Shown piece by piece: positions 86 through 8,055 of a stretch of 31,656 nucleotides of DNA. Numbering within the stretch: position 1 is the stretch's first letter; each line of letters starts with the position of its first letter. This DNA is from Candidatus Aphodoplasma excrementigallinarum (GTDB taxonomy: Bacteria > Bacillota > Clostridia > UBA1381 > UMGS1253). A program made the translations under genes and the position numbers. Under the pieces are notes generated by a model. That model did no database searches. It worked only from the letters and a program-made list of their open reading frames with translations, and was not told the origin of the DNA. Location: contig DVOF01000142.1 of NCBI GenBank assembly GCA_018713805.1, positions 1 through 31,656 on the forward strand, read 5' to 3'.

Positions 86-244
86 TCACACCTGTTCAAA
101 CGCGTCTTTCCCAAGACCGCACACAGGGCATACCCAGTCTTCCGGAATGTCCTCGAACGCCGTGCCGGGAGCAATCCCGCCGTCCGGGTCGCCGACCTCC
201 GGGTCATACACGTAACCGCATGCGCTGCACTCGTACTTCTGCAT
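86..244 (-). CDS. Rubredoxin (52 aa)
   Basis: [43 protein letters not shown] has two CxxCG motifs and the canonical rubredoxin pattern. ATG at 244 has a GGAGGA SD (251-256); the ORF-track start at 277 is an over-extension. Confidence 0.96.
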
Positions 245-442: not shown

Positions 443-488
443 ATATGGGAATGCAGCATGTGTAGAGCAACGTAAGTGGTATATAAAA

Positions 489-1098
489 TACGGTGGCGCA
501 GTATTCTAGTCAGCTCGGTCTATTCCCAAGACGGGCCTAAAAATCCGTAAAAGGGCATATCGATGAAGTTTCTGGTGCTTGCTTGGAACGCCCAGTTCGG
601 GGCTGGTGCTGGAAGTTAAGGCTTAGGGGCGGTCCGCAACGGCATGCGGGCGCCGAACCCCTTTGCCGCGGAGACCCATGCTTGTGGCTGCCAATGGGTA
701 CGGCATAAGCCGTGCCTAAGTGGTTACGACATGGGGGAGAACCTGCATATCGGTGCATTGGCGCTGGGTGCAGCGTAGCCTGCCTTGCGTGGACAGGGCT
801 GGGATAACGGACAAATCGGTACGGGCCGGCCAACCTATGCCGGTTATCGCTGTTTGAAACCCTGTCTGCAAAAGAGGCCAAGAATAGATTTGACTGCCGA
901 GGAAACCTCCTAGACTGTTGCTCTGCTGATTTGCAAGGGATTGAAATGCGGACTAAGTGGCAATCAGGTCATAAATACGGCAACGTATTTGTAGGACGCT
1001 TGAAAGGGAAACCGCCGCTTTGGCGACGGGGCGGCAGCGTCCTGGGAAAACCTACCTGACCTTAAGCCGCAAAATTTACTTTGCAGGTTGCCACCGTA
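489..1098 (+). ncRNA. ole: OLE RNA (ornate large extremophilic RNA)
   Basis: ~610-nt stretch with no credible ORF, closed by tacggtggc(489-497)/gccaccgta(1090-1098). Nested pairings: gtcag(509-513)/ctgac(1056-1060), gtagg(991-995)/cctac(1051-1055), aggacgct(993-1000)/agcgtcct(1036-1043), and a GCAA-tetraloop hairpin at 973-990. Blocks GCAGTATTCTAGTCAG, CGATGAAGTT and GGACTAAGTGG are recognised from OLE RNAs. It lies directly upstream of oapA-dxs-tlyA, the known OLE context. Ends approximate. Confidence 0.9.
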
Positions 1099-1153
1099 GT
1101 TTATATGCCACTTACTGTTTTATTTTTGTGATGGATTTGGAGTTGAATATTGT

Positions 1154-1786: not shown

Positions 1787-3682
1787 ATGAAAAAGGGTTT
1801 GGAACAGATAGAGTCGCCGGCAGACCTGAAGAAAATGAATCGGAGGGAGCTCGACGCGCTTGCGGCGCAGATCCGCCAGTTTTTGATCGAGTCCGTGTCC
1901 AAAACCGGGGGGCATCTTGCGTCGAACCTCGGCGTGGTGGAGCTGACGATTGCGTTGCACCGCGTTTTTAACCTGCCGGAGGATAAAATCGTATTTGACG
2001 TGGGGCACCAGTCCTACGTACATAAAATCCTGACCGGGCGGATGGGGCAGTTTTCCACCCTGCGGCAGGAGGGCGGCCTTTCCGGCTTCCCAAAGACGAG
2101 CGAGAGCGAGTACGACGCGTTCAACACTGGGCACAGCTCGACGTCGATTTCCGCTGCGTTGGGGCTTGCGCGAGCACGCGACCTGAAGGGGCAGTCGTAC
2201 AAGGTCGTCGCGCTCATTGGCGATGGCGCGCTGACGGGCGGGCTGGCCTATGAAGCGATCAATGACGCGGGCCACGCGGAAAACGACCTGATTGTCGTGC
2301 TCAACGACAACGAGATGAGCATTGGCAAAAATGTGGGCGGGATTAGCGAATATTTGTCGCGTATCCGGACAAGGCCGTCGTATTTCAAGCTGAAGTCGGC
2401 CACGGAGACCGCGCTGGAAAAGCTGCCGTTCGGCGAGTCGATCGTTGAGTTCCTCCGCCGAATCAAGGACGGGCTCAAGCAGACGTTTATGCAGCAGAAT
2501 ATTTTTGAGGATTTGGGCTTTACCTACCTCGGGCCGGTGGACGGGCATGACATCGGGCGTATGGAGAAAATGTTCGAGCATGCCAAGAACACAAAAGGGC
2601 CTGTGCTGGTGCATGTCTGTACGAAAAAGGGGCATGGGTACCAGCCTGCGGAGGCAAAGCCGCAGACGTTCCACGGGATTTCACGCTTTGACATTGCGTC
2701 CGGCGAGGTGATTCGCGACAAGGTCACGGCGGACTATTCGGCGATTTTCGGGCGGCACCTTTTGCGGCTGGCAAAAGACAATGAAAAAATCGTGGCGATC
2801 AGCCCGGCAATGGCGTCCGGGAGCGGGCTTTTGCCGTTTGCACGCAGCTTTCCAAAGCGGTTTTTCGACGTTGGCATCTGCGAGGCGCATGCGGTAACGA
2901 GTGCGGCGGGGCTTGCAATCGGCGGCTTTATCCCGGTGGTGGCGATTTATTCTTCGTTTTTGCAGCGTGCCTATGACCAGATTATTCACGATGTGGCGCT
3001 GCAAAACCTGCATGTCGTGTTCTGCATTGACCGCGCCGGCGTTGTTGGCGACGATGGCGAGACGCACCAGGGCGTATTTGATATCGCGTTTATGAGCCAG
3101 ATTCCGAACATGGCGGTGCTTGCACCGGCGAGCTTTTATGAGCTGGAGCATATGCTCAAGTATGCGGTTTTGAAGCATAAAGGCCCGATCTGTATCCGGT
3201 ACCCGCGCGGACGCGAGCAGTATAAGGGCACGCAGGTGAAGTTTGTATTTGGAAAAAGCGAGCTTATCAGCGAGGGCGGCGACGTGACGATCGTGGCGGT
3301 CGGCAATCTGGTGCGCTATGCGGCGCAGGCTGCGCAGGAGCTTCTCCGGCAGGGCATTTTTGCCGAGGTAGTCAACGTCCGTACGGTCGTCCCGCTCGAT
3401 AAGGAAACGATCCTGCGCTCCGTGCGCAAAACGGGCGACGTGCTCGTACTTGAGGACGGTGTGGCACGCGGCGGCGTGGGCGACATGGTGGCCCGCTTGT
3501 TAATCGAAAACGGCGTTACGGCAAACTTTGAGGGCCGCGGCTACGATGAATTTGTCGCGCAGGCGAAAGTGGCGCGCATCCACGAAAAATACGGGCTTGA
3601 CACGGCGGCGATTTGTAAATGGGCTGTGCAGGCCGCAGAGAAAAAGCGGGGGTATCAACTTGGCAAAAAAGCGCAGAGCTGA
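1787..3682 (+). CDS. dxs: 1-deoxy-D-xylulose-5-phosphate synthase
   Basis: GGHLASNLGVVELT, FDVGHQSYVHK, TPP motif GDGALTGG...NDN, DRAG, GETHQG; 631 aa. Confidence 0.98.
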   Translation: MKKGLEQIESPADLKKMNRRELDALAAQIRQFLIESVSKTGGHLASNLGVVELTIALHRVFNLPEDKIVFDVGHQSYVHKILTGRMGQFSTLRQEGGLSGFPKTSESEYDAFNTGHSSTSISAALGLARARDLKGQSYKVVALIGDGALTGGLAYEAINDAGHAENDLIVVLNDNEMSIGKNVGGISEYLSRIRTRPSYFKLKSATETALEKLPFGESIVEFLRRIKDGLKQTFMQQNIFEDLGFTYLGPVDGHDIGRMEKMFEHAKNTKGPVLVHVCTKKGHGYQPAEAKPQTFHGISRFDIASGEVIRDKVTADYSAIFGRHLLRLAKDNEKIVAISPAMASGSGLLPFARSFPKRFFDVGICEAHAVTSAAGLAIGGFIPVVAIYSSFLQRAYDQIIHDVALQNLHVVFCIDRAGVVGDDGETHQGVFDIAFMSQIPNMAVLAPASFYELEHMLKYAVLKHKGPICIRYPRGREQYKGTQVKFVFGKSELISEGGDVTIVAVGNLVRYAAQAAQELLRQGIFAEVVNVRTVVPLDKETILRSVRKTGDVLVLEDGVARGGVGDMVARLLIENGVTANFEGRGYDEFVAQAKVARIHEKYGLDTAAICKWAVQAAEKKRGYQLGKKAQS

Positions 3683-4475
3683 TGAAATTTTACTGTCCCG
3701 CGCGCTGGCGGGCGACATTGCAGAGGCGCGCGCGCTGATTATGGCGGGCGTGGTGTATATTGGCGAGGTGCGCTGTGATACGCCGGGGCAAATGCTGGCG
3801 GAGGATGTACATATCGAGGTACGCGACAAAAACCAGAAATATGTCAGCCGCGGCGGGCTGAAGCTCGAAAAGGCGATTAAGACATTTGGCATCGACCTGC
3901 GCGGCGCGGAGGCGATGGACATCGGCGCGTCAACGGGCGGCTTTACGGACTGTATGCTGCAAAACGGCGCGGCAAAGGTGTACAGCGTTGACGTGGGCTA
4001 CGGCCAGCTCGCGTGGAAGCTGCGCGGCGATACGCGCGTGGTGAATATGGAACGGACGAATATCCGCTTTGTGGAGATAGGGCAGCTGGGCGGCCCGCTC
4101 GACTTTGTTTCGGTGGATGTGTCGTTTATCTCACTGAAGCTGATTTTGCCCGTCATGCGGCGGCTTATGAAAGAGACCGGGCAGGCCGCTGTGCTGGTCA
4201 AGCCGCAGTTCGAGGCCGAGCGCGGGCAGGTCGGCGACAAGGGCGTTGTGACCGACCGGGCCGTACATCGGGAAGTAATAGAAAACTGTATCGGCTATGC
4301 GCTGGAAAACGGGTTCGACGTTTGCGGCCTGACGTATTCGCCGATCAAAGGGCCGGAGGGCAACATCGAATATTTGCTGTACCTGCGCTGCGGCGGTGGG
4401 AATTTGGGCGTTACGCCGGGGGAAATCGACGCTGCGGTGGAGGATTCGCATAGGGCGGCTTTGGCGCGGCATTGA
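3660..4475 (+). CDS. tlyA: TlyA-family rRNA methyltransferase (S4 + FtsJ domains)
   Basis: YVSRGGLKL, DIGASTGGFTD, VDVG, LVKPQFE, GNIEY. TTG at 3660 overlaps the dxs end and follows a purine-rich SD; the ORF-track start at 3528 is too far upstream. Confidence 0.95.
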   Translation: MAKKRRADEILLSRALAGDIAEARALIMAGVVYIGEVRCDTPGQMLAEDVHIEVRDKNQKYVSRGGLKLEKAIKTFGIDLRGAEAMDIGASTGGFTDCMLQNGAAKVYSVDVGYGQLAWKLRGDTRVVNMERTNIRFVEIGQLGGPLDFVSVDVSFISLKLILPVMRRLMKETGQAAVLVKPQFEAERGQVGDKGVVTDRAVHREVIENCIGYALENGFDVCGLTYSPIKGPEGNIEYLLYLRCGGGNLGVTPGEIDAAVEDSHRAALARH

Positions 4476-4508: not shown

Positions 4509-4718
4509 ATGTATGCAAAGGATATAGAGCCGAAGTGCGCGCTGTGCCAGCATGGGGAGCCGATCCCCGACACGCTGGACATGCTCTGCAAAAAGTATGG
4601 CGTGGTGCCGTACAACCATTCCTGTAAAAAATTTAAATACGATATTTTCAAAAAGAAAGTGCGCCGCCGCGCGCCGGTCGATACCGGCTATAGTGCGGAG
4701 GACTTTTCGATTGACTGA
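4509..4718 (+). CDS. Small Cys-rich hypothetical protein (69 aa), putative metal binder
   Basis: MYAKDIEPKCALCQHG...LCKK...SCKKFKYD: CxxC plus two further Cys, basic C-terminal half; co-oriented with tlyA and followed by a terminator. Confidence 0.72.
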   Translation: MYAKDIEPKCALCQHGEPIPDTLDMLCKKYGVVPYNHSCKKFKYDIFKKKVRRRAPVDTGYSAEDFSID

Positions 4719-4721
4719 AAT

Positions 4722-4750
4722 AAAGCAGGCCGTTTCAGGCCTGCTTTTCG
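4722..4750 (+). terminator. Intrinsic terminator closing the ole-oapA-dxs-tlyA unit
   Basis: aaagcaggcc(4722-4731)-gtttca-ggcctgcttt(4738-4747) followed by T-rich sequence. Confidence 0.75.
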
Positions 4751-5475
4751 TTTAGTCCGACTATCTCTTTAATCACCTCGCCCGCCAAAAGCAGCCCCGC
4801 CGCAGACGGCACAAAGGACACGCTGCCCGGCGTCTGCCGTTTTTGTACGCAGCCCGTATCCTGCTCCATTGAATCGTGCGCATACGGCGTGAGCGGCGGC
4901 TCCTGCGAATAGACGACCTTGAGCCGTTTGACGCCGCGCTTGCGCAGCTCATAGCGCATCACTTTGGCAAGCGGGCACATCGACGTTTTATAAATATCGC
5001 TTACCTCAAGACGAGCCGCGTCAAGCTTGTTGCCCGTACCCATGCAGCTGATAACGGGCACGCCCGCGGCCTGCGCGCGTTCGATGAGCAACAGCTTAGA
5101 CGTTACGGTATCGATCGCGTCTATGATATAGTCGTAAGCGGTAAAATCGTATCCGTCTGCGTTGTCCGCGCTGTAAAAGACGCGGTGCGCGTTTATGACT
5201 GCGTTTGGATTGATGTCGAGCGCACGCGCCTTCATGACGTCCACTTTTGGCTTGCCAAGCGTGCTGTGCAGGGCGATCAGCTGCCGGTTCAGGTTCGACT
5301 CGCATACGGTGTCCGGGTCGAACAGGTCGAGAATACCCACGCCTGCGCGGACGAGCGCCTCTGCGGCAAACGAGCCCACGCCGCCAATCCCAAATACGGC
5401 GACATGGGCGCGGCTTAGTTTTTGCACACCGCATTCCCCAAGCAGGAGCGCGGTCCGGATAAATTGCTTTTCCAT
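4735..5475 (-). CDS. tcdA: ThiF-family tRNA threonylcarbamoyladenosine dehydratase (TcdA-like)
   Basis: VAVFGIGGVGSFAAEAL, SNLNRQ, IIDAIDT, SCMGTGNKLD, CPLAKVMR, GSVSFVPS. ATG at 5475 with GGAGGT SD (5481-5486). Confidence 0.9.
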   Translation of the reverse strand: MEKQFIRTALLLGECGVQKLSRAHVAVFGIGGVGSFAAEALVRAGVGILDLFDPDTVCESNLNRQLIALHSTLGKPKVDVMKARALDINPNAVINAHRVFYSADNADGYDFTAYDYIIDAIDTVTSKLLLIERAQAAGVPVISCMGTGNKLDAARLEVSDIYKTSMCPLAKVMRYELRKRGVKRLKVVYSQEPPLTPYAHDSMEQDTGCVQKRQTPGSVSFVPSAAGLLLAGEVIKEIVGLNEKQA

Positions 5476-5499
5476 GCTGCACCTCCATATCCTGCATTG

Positions 5500-5529
5500 A
5501 TTGTACCACAGCGGCGTAGGCATTTGCAA
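5500..5529 (-). promoter_or_regulatory. sigma-A-like promoter of tcdA
   Basis: Minus strand TTGCAA(5529-5524)-N18-TACAAT(5505-5500) with extended TG. Confidence 0.55.
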
Positions 5530-5633: not shown

Positions 5634-6947
5634 ATGGAAACGCTAACATTTGATTTGAACAAAAAAGGCGGTAAATTTAAGATTTTGAATGCAACAAACG
5701 GCGGCCCATGGCACAAAAGACACACAAACGACCAGTATCGGAGCAATTTTGACAGTTATAAAGCTGCAAGAATACCGTATTCGAGGAATCATGATTCCGG
5801 TGTAGTGGGAATATACGGCGGCCCGTTCAGCCATGATATTACAAGAATCTTTCCAAATTTTGATGCGGATGCAGAGGACCCTGCTTCGTACGATTTTGCC
5901 TGTACGGACGAATCTATTTTATGCACCCTTGAGGCCGGGACAAAAACTTTTTTCAGATTGGGCCAAACGATTGAGCATCAAATAAAAAAACACGGTATAA
6001 TACCGCCGCCGGATTTTAAAAAATGGGCGGTTATCTGTGAACATATTATCAGGCACTATAACGAGGGATGGGCAGAAGGATACCATCTTGATATCGAATA
6101 TTGGGAGATATGGAATGAACCTGATTTAGACCCGGACGATAGCGCAAACAAGCGTACATGGGCGGGAACCAAAGCCGAATTTTTTAATTTGTACGAAATT
6201 GCGGCAAAACATCTTAAAAATTGTTTTCCCCATCTGAAAATAGGCGGCCCTGCGCTCGCAGGAGATGAAGAATGGGCGGCGGATTTTCTTGCAGAAATGA
6301 GAAAAAGGGACGTGCCTATCGACTTCTTTTCCTGGCATGTGTATGGGTCAACGCCTGATAAAATGATAAAAAAGGCAGAGCGAATAAAAGCCCTCCTGAT
6401 CAAAAACGGATATAAAAATGCAGAAAGTATTTTAAATGAATGGAATTACGTAAAAGGATGGACGGATGAATTTGTATATACCATTCAAATGATTCATGGT
6501 ATGAAGGGCGCGGCATTTACGATGGCCTGTATATCGGAAGCGCAGAAATGTACCGGCATAGATATGCTGATGTATTACGATACAAGGCCGTCGGCGTTCT
6601 GCGGTGTATTTGATTTTTATACCTGGCGGCCGTTGAAGGGATATTACCCGTTCCAATGGTATGGTATGTTTTATGATATGATTGCCGAAATTAGCTGTGA
6701 GTCCAGCATAGATGACATCTATACGCTTTGCGGAGTGGATAAAAACGACAAGGTTCTCTGTGTGCTCACACATTATTCGGACAATGACGCTGCGGGGGCA
6801 AAGTCTGTGAAAGTAGACTTTGGCAGAAAGGGAAAATATGAGATTTATTTTCTTGATGAAAAACATGACGCAGAGCCTGTAGCAATTACGGATAAGCTGG
6901 AGTTAACAATGGTGAACAATTCCTGCGTTATGATCAAAGAGGTATGA
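5634..6947 (+). CDS. Clan GH-A glycoside hydrolase, GH39-like
   Basis: YWEIWNEP (acid/base), KIGGP, DFFSWHVY, ILNEWN (nucleophile); no signal peptide seen; AGGAGG SD. Substrate cannot be called. Confidence 0.85.
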   Translation: METLTFDLNKKGGKFKILNATNGGPWHKRHTNDQYRSNFDSYKAARIPYSRNHDSGVVGIYGGPFSHDITRIFPNFDADAEDPASYDFACTDESILCTLEAGTKTFFRLGQTIEHQIKKHGIIPPPDFKKWAVICEHIIRHYNEGWAEGYHLDIEYWEIWNEPDLDPDDSANKRTWAGTKAEFFNLYEIAAKHLKNCFPHLKIGGPALAGDEEWAADFLAEMRKRDVPIDFFSWHVYGSTPDKMIKKAERIKALLIKNGYKNAESILNEWNYVKGWTDEFVYTIQMIHGMKGAAFTMACISEAQKCTGIDMLMYYDTRPSAFCGVFDFYTWRPLKGYYPFQWYGMFYDMIAEISCESSIDDIYTLCGVDKNDKVLCVLTHYSDNDAAGAKSVKVDFGRKGKYEIYFLDEKHDAEPVAITDKLELTMVNNSCVMIKEV

Positions 6948-7014: not shown

Positions 7015-7848
7015 ATGCTGCATATTGGCTGCCATCTGTCGGCCGCGAAAGGATATTACCATATGGGGCAGGAGGCGCTCAAGGTCGGTGCGGACACGCT
7101 GCAATACTTTACGCGCAACCCGCGCGGCGCAAGCGCAAAAAAGGTCGACCCGGAGGATATTAAAAAGTTTGTCGACTTGATGGAGGAACACCACTTTGCA
7201 AAAATCGTCGCGCATGCGCCGTACACGCTCAACGCCTGCTCGAAGGACGAGCATCTCCGCGCGCTTGCAAAGCGGATGATGGCGGAGGATTTGGAAACGC
7301 TCGACTATCTCCCGGGCAACTACTATAACTTCCACCCCGGCAGCCATGTCGGGCAGGGGATAGAGGCCGGGATCGGCTACATCTGCGAGGCACTCAACGA
7401 GGTGCTGCGCGCCGACCAGAAGACTACCGTCCTGCTCGAGACAATGGCGGGCAAGGGGAGCGAGGTCGGGTCGCGGTTCGAGGAGCTGCGCTCGATTATA
7501 GACGGCGTGGAGAAAAGCGACAAGCTGGGCGTGTGCCTAGACACCTGCCACGTCAGTGACGCGGGGTATGACATTATCCACGACCTGGACGGCGTTTTGA
7601 ATGAATTTGACCGCGTGATCGGGCTTGACCGGCTCAAGGCCGTGCACTTAAACGACAGCATGAACGTGACCGGCGCACATAAGGACCGTCATGCAAAGAT
7701 CGGCGAGGGGGAGATCGGCGTAGAAGCAATCACGCGCATTATCAACCACCCTGCCCTGCGGGACTTGCCCTTCAATCTCGAAACGCCAAACGATCTGGAA
7801 GGTTACGCCGCAGAGATTAAGCTTTTGCGCGGGCTGTACGAGGCGTAA
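7015..7848 (+). CDS. nfo: Endonuclease IV (AP endonuclease)
   Basis: [31 protein letters not shown] and ETP zinc-ligand motifs. Confidence 0.97.
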
Positions 7849-7920: not shown

Positions 7921-8055
7921 ATAAATGTCTTCAGGGCAGGGTGCAAGTCCCTACCGGTGGTTACAGCCCACGAGCTGCTGCCGATGATATCGGCAGAGCA
8001 GATTCGGTGTGATTCCGAAGCCGACAGTTACAGTCTGGACGAAAGAGGACAAGAG
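7921..8055 (+). promoter_or_regulatory. FMN (RFN) riboswitch aptamer
   Basis: Canonical blocks TCAGGGCAGGGTG..A.TCCC.ACCGGTGGT, AGCCCACGAG, GATTCGGTG..ATTCCGAAGCCGACAGT, AGTCTGGA.GAAAGA; P1 tgtcttc(7926-7932)/gaggaca(8045-8051); upstream of a riboflavin S-component. Confidence 0.97.

Follow-up and report, generated by a model that had tools for sequence, protein, structure and literature searches.

Background

OLE is a well-described large structured bacterial RNA, the biochemical function of which is, to our knowledge, still not known for the family as a whole. Its hosts are Bacillota, typically anaerobes or extremophiles. Of its partner proteins, OapA is a small protein of about four transmembrane helices, which is encoded beside ole and is weakly related to the CNNM/DUF21 proteins, OapB (YbzG) is a KOW-type small beta-barrel, and OapC (YbxF) is an L7Ae-family kink-turn binder. 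The OLE RNA of Halalkalibacterium (Bacillus) halodurans, the member of Rfam RF01071 that has been studied by experiment, is part of a membrane-associated ribonucleoprotein (RNP) with a role in stress tolerance, as known from this species only (PMC9723947, PMC10898510); its J4a/5 and J5/6 segments form the kink turn to which OapC binds (PMC9723947), and binding of OapB requires the GNRA loop of hairpin P13 together with one bulged nucleotide three pairs below it (PMC7936274). The OLE RNAs of C. acetobutylicum and C. botulinum have been seen as dimers by cryo-EM (PMC12286853, PMC12265935), and an Infernal survey of GTDB R214 recorded 2,822 Bacillota OLE RNAs and described reduced variants besides the full-length form (PMC11332333).

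The OLE RNA considered here lies in a stretch of 31,656 nucleotides, hereafter the window, from contig DVOF01000142.1 of Candidatus Aphodoplasma excrementigallinarum. The source assembly (GCA_018713805.1) is a metagenome-assembled genome (MAG) of 1.77 Mb in 243 contigs, 81% complete, from a chicken gut metagenome. An earlier note, made from the sequence alone, had placed an OLE RNA at positions 489-1098 and an OapA-type gene directly behind it, and the analysis below follows up that proposal.

A full-length OLE RNA gene

A scan of the whole window with the covariance models of Rfam 15 gave a match to the OLE model RF01071 at 477-1110 on the plus strand, scoring 488.4 bits against a gathering threshold of 50 bits (E 1.4e-140) and covering positions 1-616 of the 616 in the model with an alignment accuracy of 0.98 (cmscan). 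When the full terminal helix P1 is included, the gene extends over 472-1115 (+), and the earlier note had therefore named the RNA and found its location correctly, while drawing its limits slightly too narrowly. The gene is present in one copy in the whole assembly. The description of the stretch as ORF-poor and self-complementary, with nested helices and conserved blocks, is likewise borne out: each of the six frames of 472-1115 holds 5-11 stop codons, and in alignment A1, which comprises the window RNA and 27 homologues and spans four families of its order, about 250 columns are invariant. The covariation to which the earlier note had pointed as a check is also present in these 28 sequences, since 101 of the 187 base pairs given by RNAalifold show double, compensatory changes in at least one sequence each. 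Two-sided changes in so many pairs indicate that the structure is under selection, and they make the assignment to the OLE family secure. Family membership and structure are thus matters of observation, as are the gene neighbourhood and the partner genes described below.

In view of these data there is practically no chance that the stretch is protein-coding and its match to an RNA model incidental. An open reading frame of 114 aa does exist on the minus strand at 537-881 and could be taken to speak for coding, but chance cannot account for an E value of 1.4e-140 against a structured-RNA model, the substitutions among relatives preserve base pairs, stop codons interrupt every frame, and the product of the 114-aa frame is not in the protein collection. 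The RNA match and the covariation already refute a coding reading of 537-881. The absence of this product, the longest that the stretch could encode, from a collection of 15 billion proteins also leaves the suggestion in the earlier note, that spurious ORFs are called here, without support.

Most of the conserved blocks of OLE RNAs are identical to the Rfam consensus in the window RNA. Among the segments that are both identical to this consensus and invariant in alignment A1 are AUCGAUGAAGUU of J4a/5 (559-570, +) and AGUUAAGG of J5/6 (614-621, +), which by their sequence would be the kink-turn-forming elements of the OapC site. In common with the H. halodurans RNA, the window OLE has the full P1-P15 architecture, the conserved blocks, the J4a/5 and J5/6 segments and the GNRA loop of P13; it differs by a P13 without bulge, by a P1 of 26 bp and by a 17-nt insertion at about 700-716. 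This insertion, which relative to the Rfam OLE consensus occupies 700-716 (+), lengthens one variable hairpin (ACGGC-AUAA-GCCGU), and comparable extensions, with A-N-A-A loops, are seen in relatives of the same family. The hosts of the C. acetobutylicum and C. botulinum OLE RNAs belong, like the host of the window RNA, to the class Clostridia, and the sequence elements of the domain 1 dimer and of the kink turn are conserved between them, the window RNA being known from sequence and about 60 nt longer than the 577-nt RNA of C. acetobutylicum. Variant 1 (TANB77) and variant 2 (RF39) OLE RNAs are likewise found in uncultured gut Clostridia or Bacilli (PMC11332333), but as compared with these the window RNA is full-length, with P7-P9 present and with the loop of P13 retained, so that only the bulge of this hairpin is lost.

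All 18 other genomes of the family that were sampled carry OLE, including each of the 7 from the window's genus, and so do 33 of the 41 relatives in total. The nearest records are uncultured Clostridia/Clostridiales gut MAGs. The earlier note had considered that the host lineage might not have been described for OLE. This can no longer be upheld, since the presence of the RNA throughout the sampled family, together with the published GTDB survey and its 2,822 Bacillota OLE RNAs (PMC11332333), makes the host lineage unremarkable. Judged by its sequence, window 472-1115 (+) is confirmed as a complete and typical full-length OLE RNA gene, and the stretch as a correct call of a known RNA family that is ordinary for its lineage.

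Terminal helix P1

The earlier note had seen a closing helix between 489-497 and 1090-1098, and indeed TACGGTGGC (489-497) is the exact reverse complement of GCCACCGTA (1090-1098). These nine nucleotides are the inner part of a considerably longer helix, in which a 5' arm at 472-497 (+) pairs with a 3' arm at 1090-1115 (+) over about 26 bp, interrupted by a single mismatch. For this pairing of the RNA ends RNAduplex calculates -52.2 kcal/mol. Besides this energy, the helix has covariation in its favour (columns 1-6/691-696 and 13-21/676-684 of the RNAalifold alignment). A covarying P1 of 25-33 bp is found in all relatives of the window's own family, f1, as against about 9 bp in the neighbouring families f3 and f4. 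The extended P1 is a small clade-specific detail that is newly described here.

The gene unit headed by ole

The gene upstream of ole encodes a rubredoxin of 52 aa (86-244, minus strand; NF045768, 109 bits) and is divergent from it, so that ole has no co-directional preceding gene here. On the ole side of the rubredoxin gene is a sigma-70-type promoter (382-410, +), the likely start of the ole unit, which consists of TTTACA at 382-387, a spacer of 17 nt and a TATTAT element with a TG extension, the TGnTATTAT ending at 410. In an alignment of nine upstream regions from the same family (A2), the columns CTTTACA and T.TG.TAT..T are invariant in 9/9. A second promoter-like site (TTGATT, 16 nt, TATAAT; 415-442, +) was picked up by the promoter scan, and among the nine family members it is shared by the window and its nearest relative (L015) only.

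The gene for OLE-associated membrane protein A, oapA (1154-1780, +; 208 aa, TTG start), begins 38 nt after the end of P1, directly downstream of ole as the earlier note had stated and as is the case in H. halodurans. The window protein has no Pfam or NCBIfam match, and a precomputed PF01595 match is found on some OapA homologues, not on this one; the assignment is made from homology and position. In a tblastn search 496 confirmed relatives of the ORF were found among the genome contigs scanned, and in 13 of 13 loci tested, which include Thermoanaerobacter, Lentibacillus halodurans, Lederbergia lenta, Virgibacillus and Lihuaxuella, a full-length OLE lies directly upstream of the oapA homologue. 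This conserved pairing is the defining feature that, together with homology, identifies the gene. Three clear hydrophobic helices can be made out in the protein and a fourth is not resolved, and from its sequence the product of 1154-1780 appears to fit the description of OapA.

Next in the same direction is dxs, encoding 1-deoxy-D-xylulose-5-phosphate synthase (1787-3682, +; TIGR00204, 767 bits against a cut-off of 466), followed by a tlyA-family gene for an rRNA 2'-O-methyltransferase (3660-4475, +; TIGR00478, 229 bits against 185.8), the start of which was placed at the TTG at 3660 and which overlaps the end of dxs by 23 nt. The last gene is an ORF read from the sequence (4509-4718, +), encoding a basic protein of 69 aa with four cysteines for which no family match was found. 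It is followed by an intrinsic terminator (4722-4753, +), composed of AAAGCAGGCC, the loop GTTTCA, GGCCTGCTTT and a T-rich tail, which was missed by the pattern scan and found by reading the sequence directly. The window ole thus stands under a promoter of its own, next to the divergently oriented rubredoxin gene, and its unit ends after tlyA and one small ORF.

The small ORF was considered as a new OLE partner, but the case for this is weak, as its synteny with ole is confined to three genera: only genera g1, g3 and g4 have it, 3.4-4 kb downstream from ole, other OLE genomes either carry it on a different contig or gave no match for it (0/6 in the OLE-bearing genus g2), and one genome in which OLE was not detected has it nonetheless. 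Further along the window, the region 4735-5529 holds only ORFs without assignment, on both strands, and after it come a glycoside hydrolase family 39-like gene (5634-6947, +; PF01229, E 1.1e-19) and an nfo-type endonuclease IV gene (7015-7848) with an FMN riboswitch downstream of it (7923-8054, +; RF00050, 113.3 bits against a cut-off of 66.2).

That ole heads its own ole-oapA-dxs-tlyA unit, as the earlier note had proposed from the gene order, is supported, because the family-conserved promoter at 382-410 lies upstream of ole and because a pattern scan for terminators on the plus strand found none from ole to oapA. Promoter scans furthermore detected no promoter directly before oapA, and co-transcription of the unit is what we infer from this arrangement.

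OLE sequence in RNA libraries

Contigs of one DNA run and three RNA runs were compared with positions 1-2400 of the window. The DNA run covers this region evenly at about 9x. In two gut metatranscriptomes the assembled contigs match the OLE body with 98.5-99% identity, at 611-1069 (7 differences) and 604-935 (3 differences), at a low depth of 2.7-5.2 and without transcript ends, and depth is zero on 1-480 and 1121-1840. The remaining RNA library, from wastewater, covers the flanks too; it represents a relative that is about 96% identical, and it may contain DNA. Contigs confined to the OLE body would fit a stable RNA that is more abundant than the neighbouring mRNAs, although in assemblies of such low depth the sequence in these RNA libraries need not stem from transcripts. 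In addition, RNA libraries from wastewater and gut (X12, X15) contain very short contigs (31-59 nt) that match conserved blocks of OLE at word depths between 42 and 2,200, which suggests that many community members have OLE RNA as a highly abundant transcript.

These data also bear on the notion that the element is mainly a long structured cis-acting 5' leader of an oapA-dxs-tlyA mRNA and not a separate stable RNA. Such a leader would account for the conserved promoter being upstream of ole with none detected before oapA, for the gap of merely 38 nt to oapA, and for the failure to find a terminator-like site between 1115 and the start of that gene. The occurrence of the OLE body without oapA sequence in two metatranscriptomes, albeit in low-depth contigs, is however what would be expected of a stable or processed RNA, and the long P1 duplex joining the ends is of a kind that delimits and protects a mature RNA. 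Moreover, the RNP in which the H. halodurans OLE works includes proteins whose genes lie elsewhere (PMC9723947, PMC7936274). We therefore hold it to be highly unlikely that the element is mainly a leader.

Genes for OapB and OapC

The earlier note had proposed that oapB and oapC be sought in the rest of the genome, and candidates for both were indeed found there. A search for the L7Ae family returned two genes, one of which encodes a protein of 94 aa (G000:C199; L003:1456-1740) directly upstream of rpsL and rpsG. The best PDB matches of this protein are to B. subtilis YbxF (4LCK/3V7E, E 1.1e-11), the conserved RNA-contacting Gly is kept, and its NCBIfam score is below the cut-off (65.5 against 113). 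The other L7Ae paralogue occupies the YlxQ position, flanked by a ylxR-like gene and infB. The YbxF-type matches of the former taken together with the YlxQ context of the latter make the gene upstream of rpsL the OapC candidate.

OapB was missed in this genome by searches with the Pfam KOW (PF00467) and L14e (PF01929) families. In Lentibacillus halodurans a KOW protein of 98 aa encoded between map and infA matches OapB (7K9B) with E 1e-31, and with this protein as query a candidate of 94 aa was found in the window's genome (G000:C10; L123:1483-1767, minus strand), in the same map-oapB-infA position. The structure 7K9B, OLE-associated protein B, is its only PDB match (E 4.5e-11), and the candidate keeps the Gly-Arg and His contact residues, with Ser as the equivalent of R49. 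As far as sequence and gene context can tell, OapA, OapB and OapC are accordingly all encoded in the genome, as they are in H. halodurans, whereas the TANB77 and RF39 clades mostly lack oapB and oapC (PMC11332333).

Homologues of OapB and OapC are also found in relatives in which OLE was not detected, and OapB homologues in OLE-less organisms have been reported for other lineages (PMC11332333). The two partner genes are thus consistent with an OLE RNP but are no proof that their products take part in it. The genome also contains a full CNNM/DUF21 gene of the MpfA/CorC type (G000:C110:32-616, L154), an open frame of 444 aa, which is a point against the proposed RNP, since organisms with OLE tend to lack the CNNM/MpfA family (PMC11332333).

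The P13 hairpin and the OapB site

The P13 hairpin, the site of OapB, is found at 971-992 (+) and reads AUAAAUACG-GCAA-CGUAUUUGU, with a GCAA loop of the GNRA type at 980-983 on an unbroken stem of 9 bp. The usual single-nucleotide bulge has no counterpart in this hairpin, since in the cmscan alignment A987, an insertion, stands opposite U976 and pairs with it. A parse of 79 OLE RNAs showed the continuous stem to be restricted to the window's family (f1), its sister family (f2) and a few MAGs nearest to them, while the bulge is kept in Bacilli, Thermoanaerobacter, Congzhengia and others. The bulge is a feature of the protein site and not a criterion of membership in the OLE family, and its loss is a second small clade-specific detail that is newly described here. 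An altered OapB site at P13 has likewise been noted in variant 1 (TANB77) (PMC11332333).

In the absence of the bulge OapB may bind differently in this clade or not at all. The residue R49 of OapB contacts the bulge backbone of P13, and a co-variation of this residue with the bulge was therefore considered; it was rejected, as the two do not change in step. Where the OLE RNA lacks the bulge, the equivalent residue is S, T or C (window's genus) or K (the family's other genera); where the bulge is present, it is H, R, K or Q in family f3 and S in Lederbergia lenta. It is conceivable, though rather doubtful, that the OLE RNP of this clade is built differently, with OapB docking in another manner or not at all and with both RNA ends locked in a duplex of 25-33 bp as a possible processing or anchoring element.

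The missing bulge might alternatively be taken as a sign that the locus is a decaying, non-functional relic, and the published survey does mention rare defective ole genes, these being in organisms without OapA (PMC11332333). In the window oapA is however intact and the OLE model is covered in full at 488 bits, and OLE is retained in all 18 of the sampled genomes of the family. The same form of P13 is kept with compensatory changes family-wide, which points to selection and not to decay. A relic can thus be regarded as extremely improbable.

Proposed function and significance

The locus is very probably a functional full-length OLE RNA gene with its own conserved promoter and the fold of its family, the product of which would form an RNP with OapA, OapB and OapC. 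Transcription would start from the promoter at 382-410, probably giving a transcript that begins with OLE, continues through oapA, dxs, tlyA and the small ORF and would end at the terminator near 4722-4753. The RNA is predicted to fold into the conserved OLE architecture, in which the 26-bp P1 would join both ends. Assembly of the RNP, its membrane location and its physiological role we infer by analogy with H. halodurans and with the clostridial cryo-EM structures: the RNA most likely dimerises and binds the adjacently encoded OapA, itself as dimers, at the membrane, while segments 559-570 and 614-621 would form the kink turn that receives OapC, and P13 in domain 2 would be the docking site of OapB. 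The membrane-bound RNP may then aid tolerance of cold, alcohol, Mg2+ and poor carbon sources (PMC9723947, PMC10898510, PMC12286853, PMC12265935).

A standard Rfam scan finds the gene at once, and the finding has little significance beyond its correct annotation. The locus nonetheless shows cleanly what a self-contained ole-oapA-dxs-tlyA unit under its own conserved promoter looks like, and the natural variants that it presents, an OapB site without bulge and a P1 in the form of a long duplex, may be used to test which RNA-protein contacts are required.
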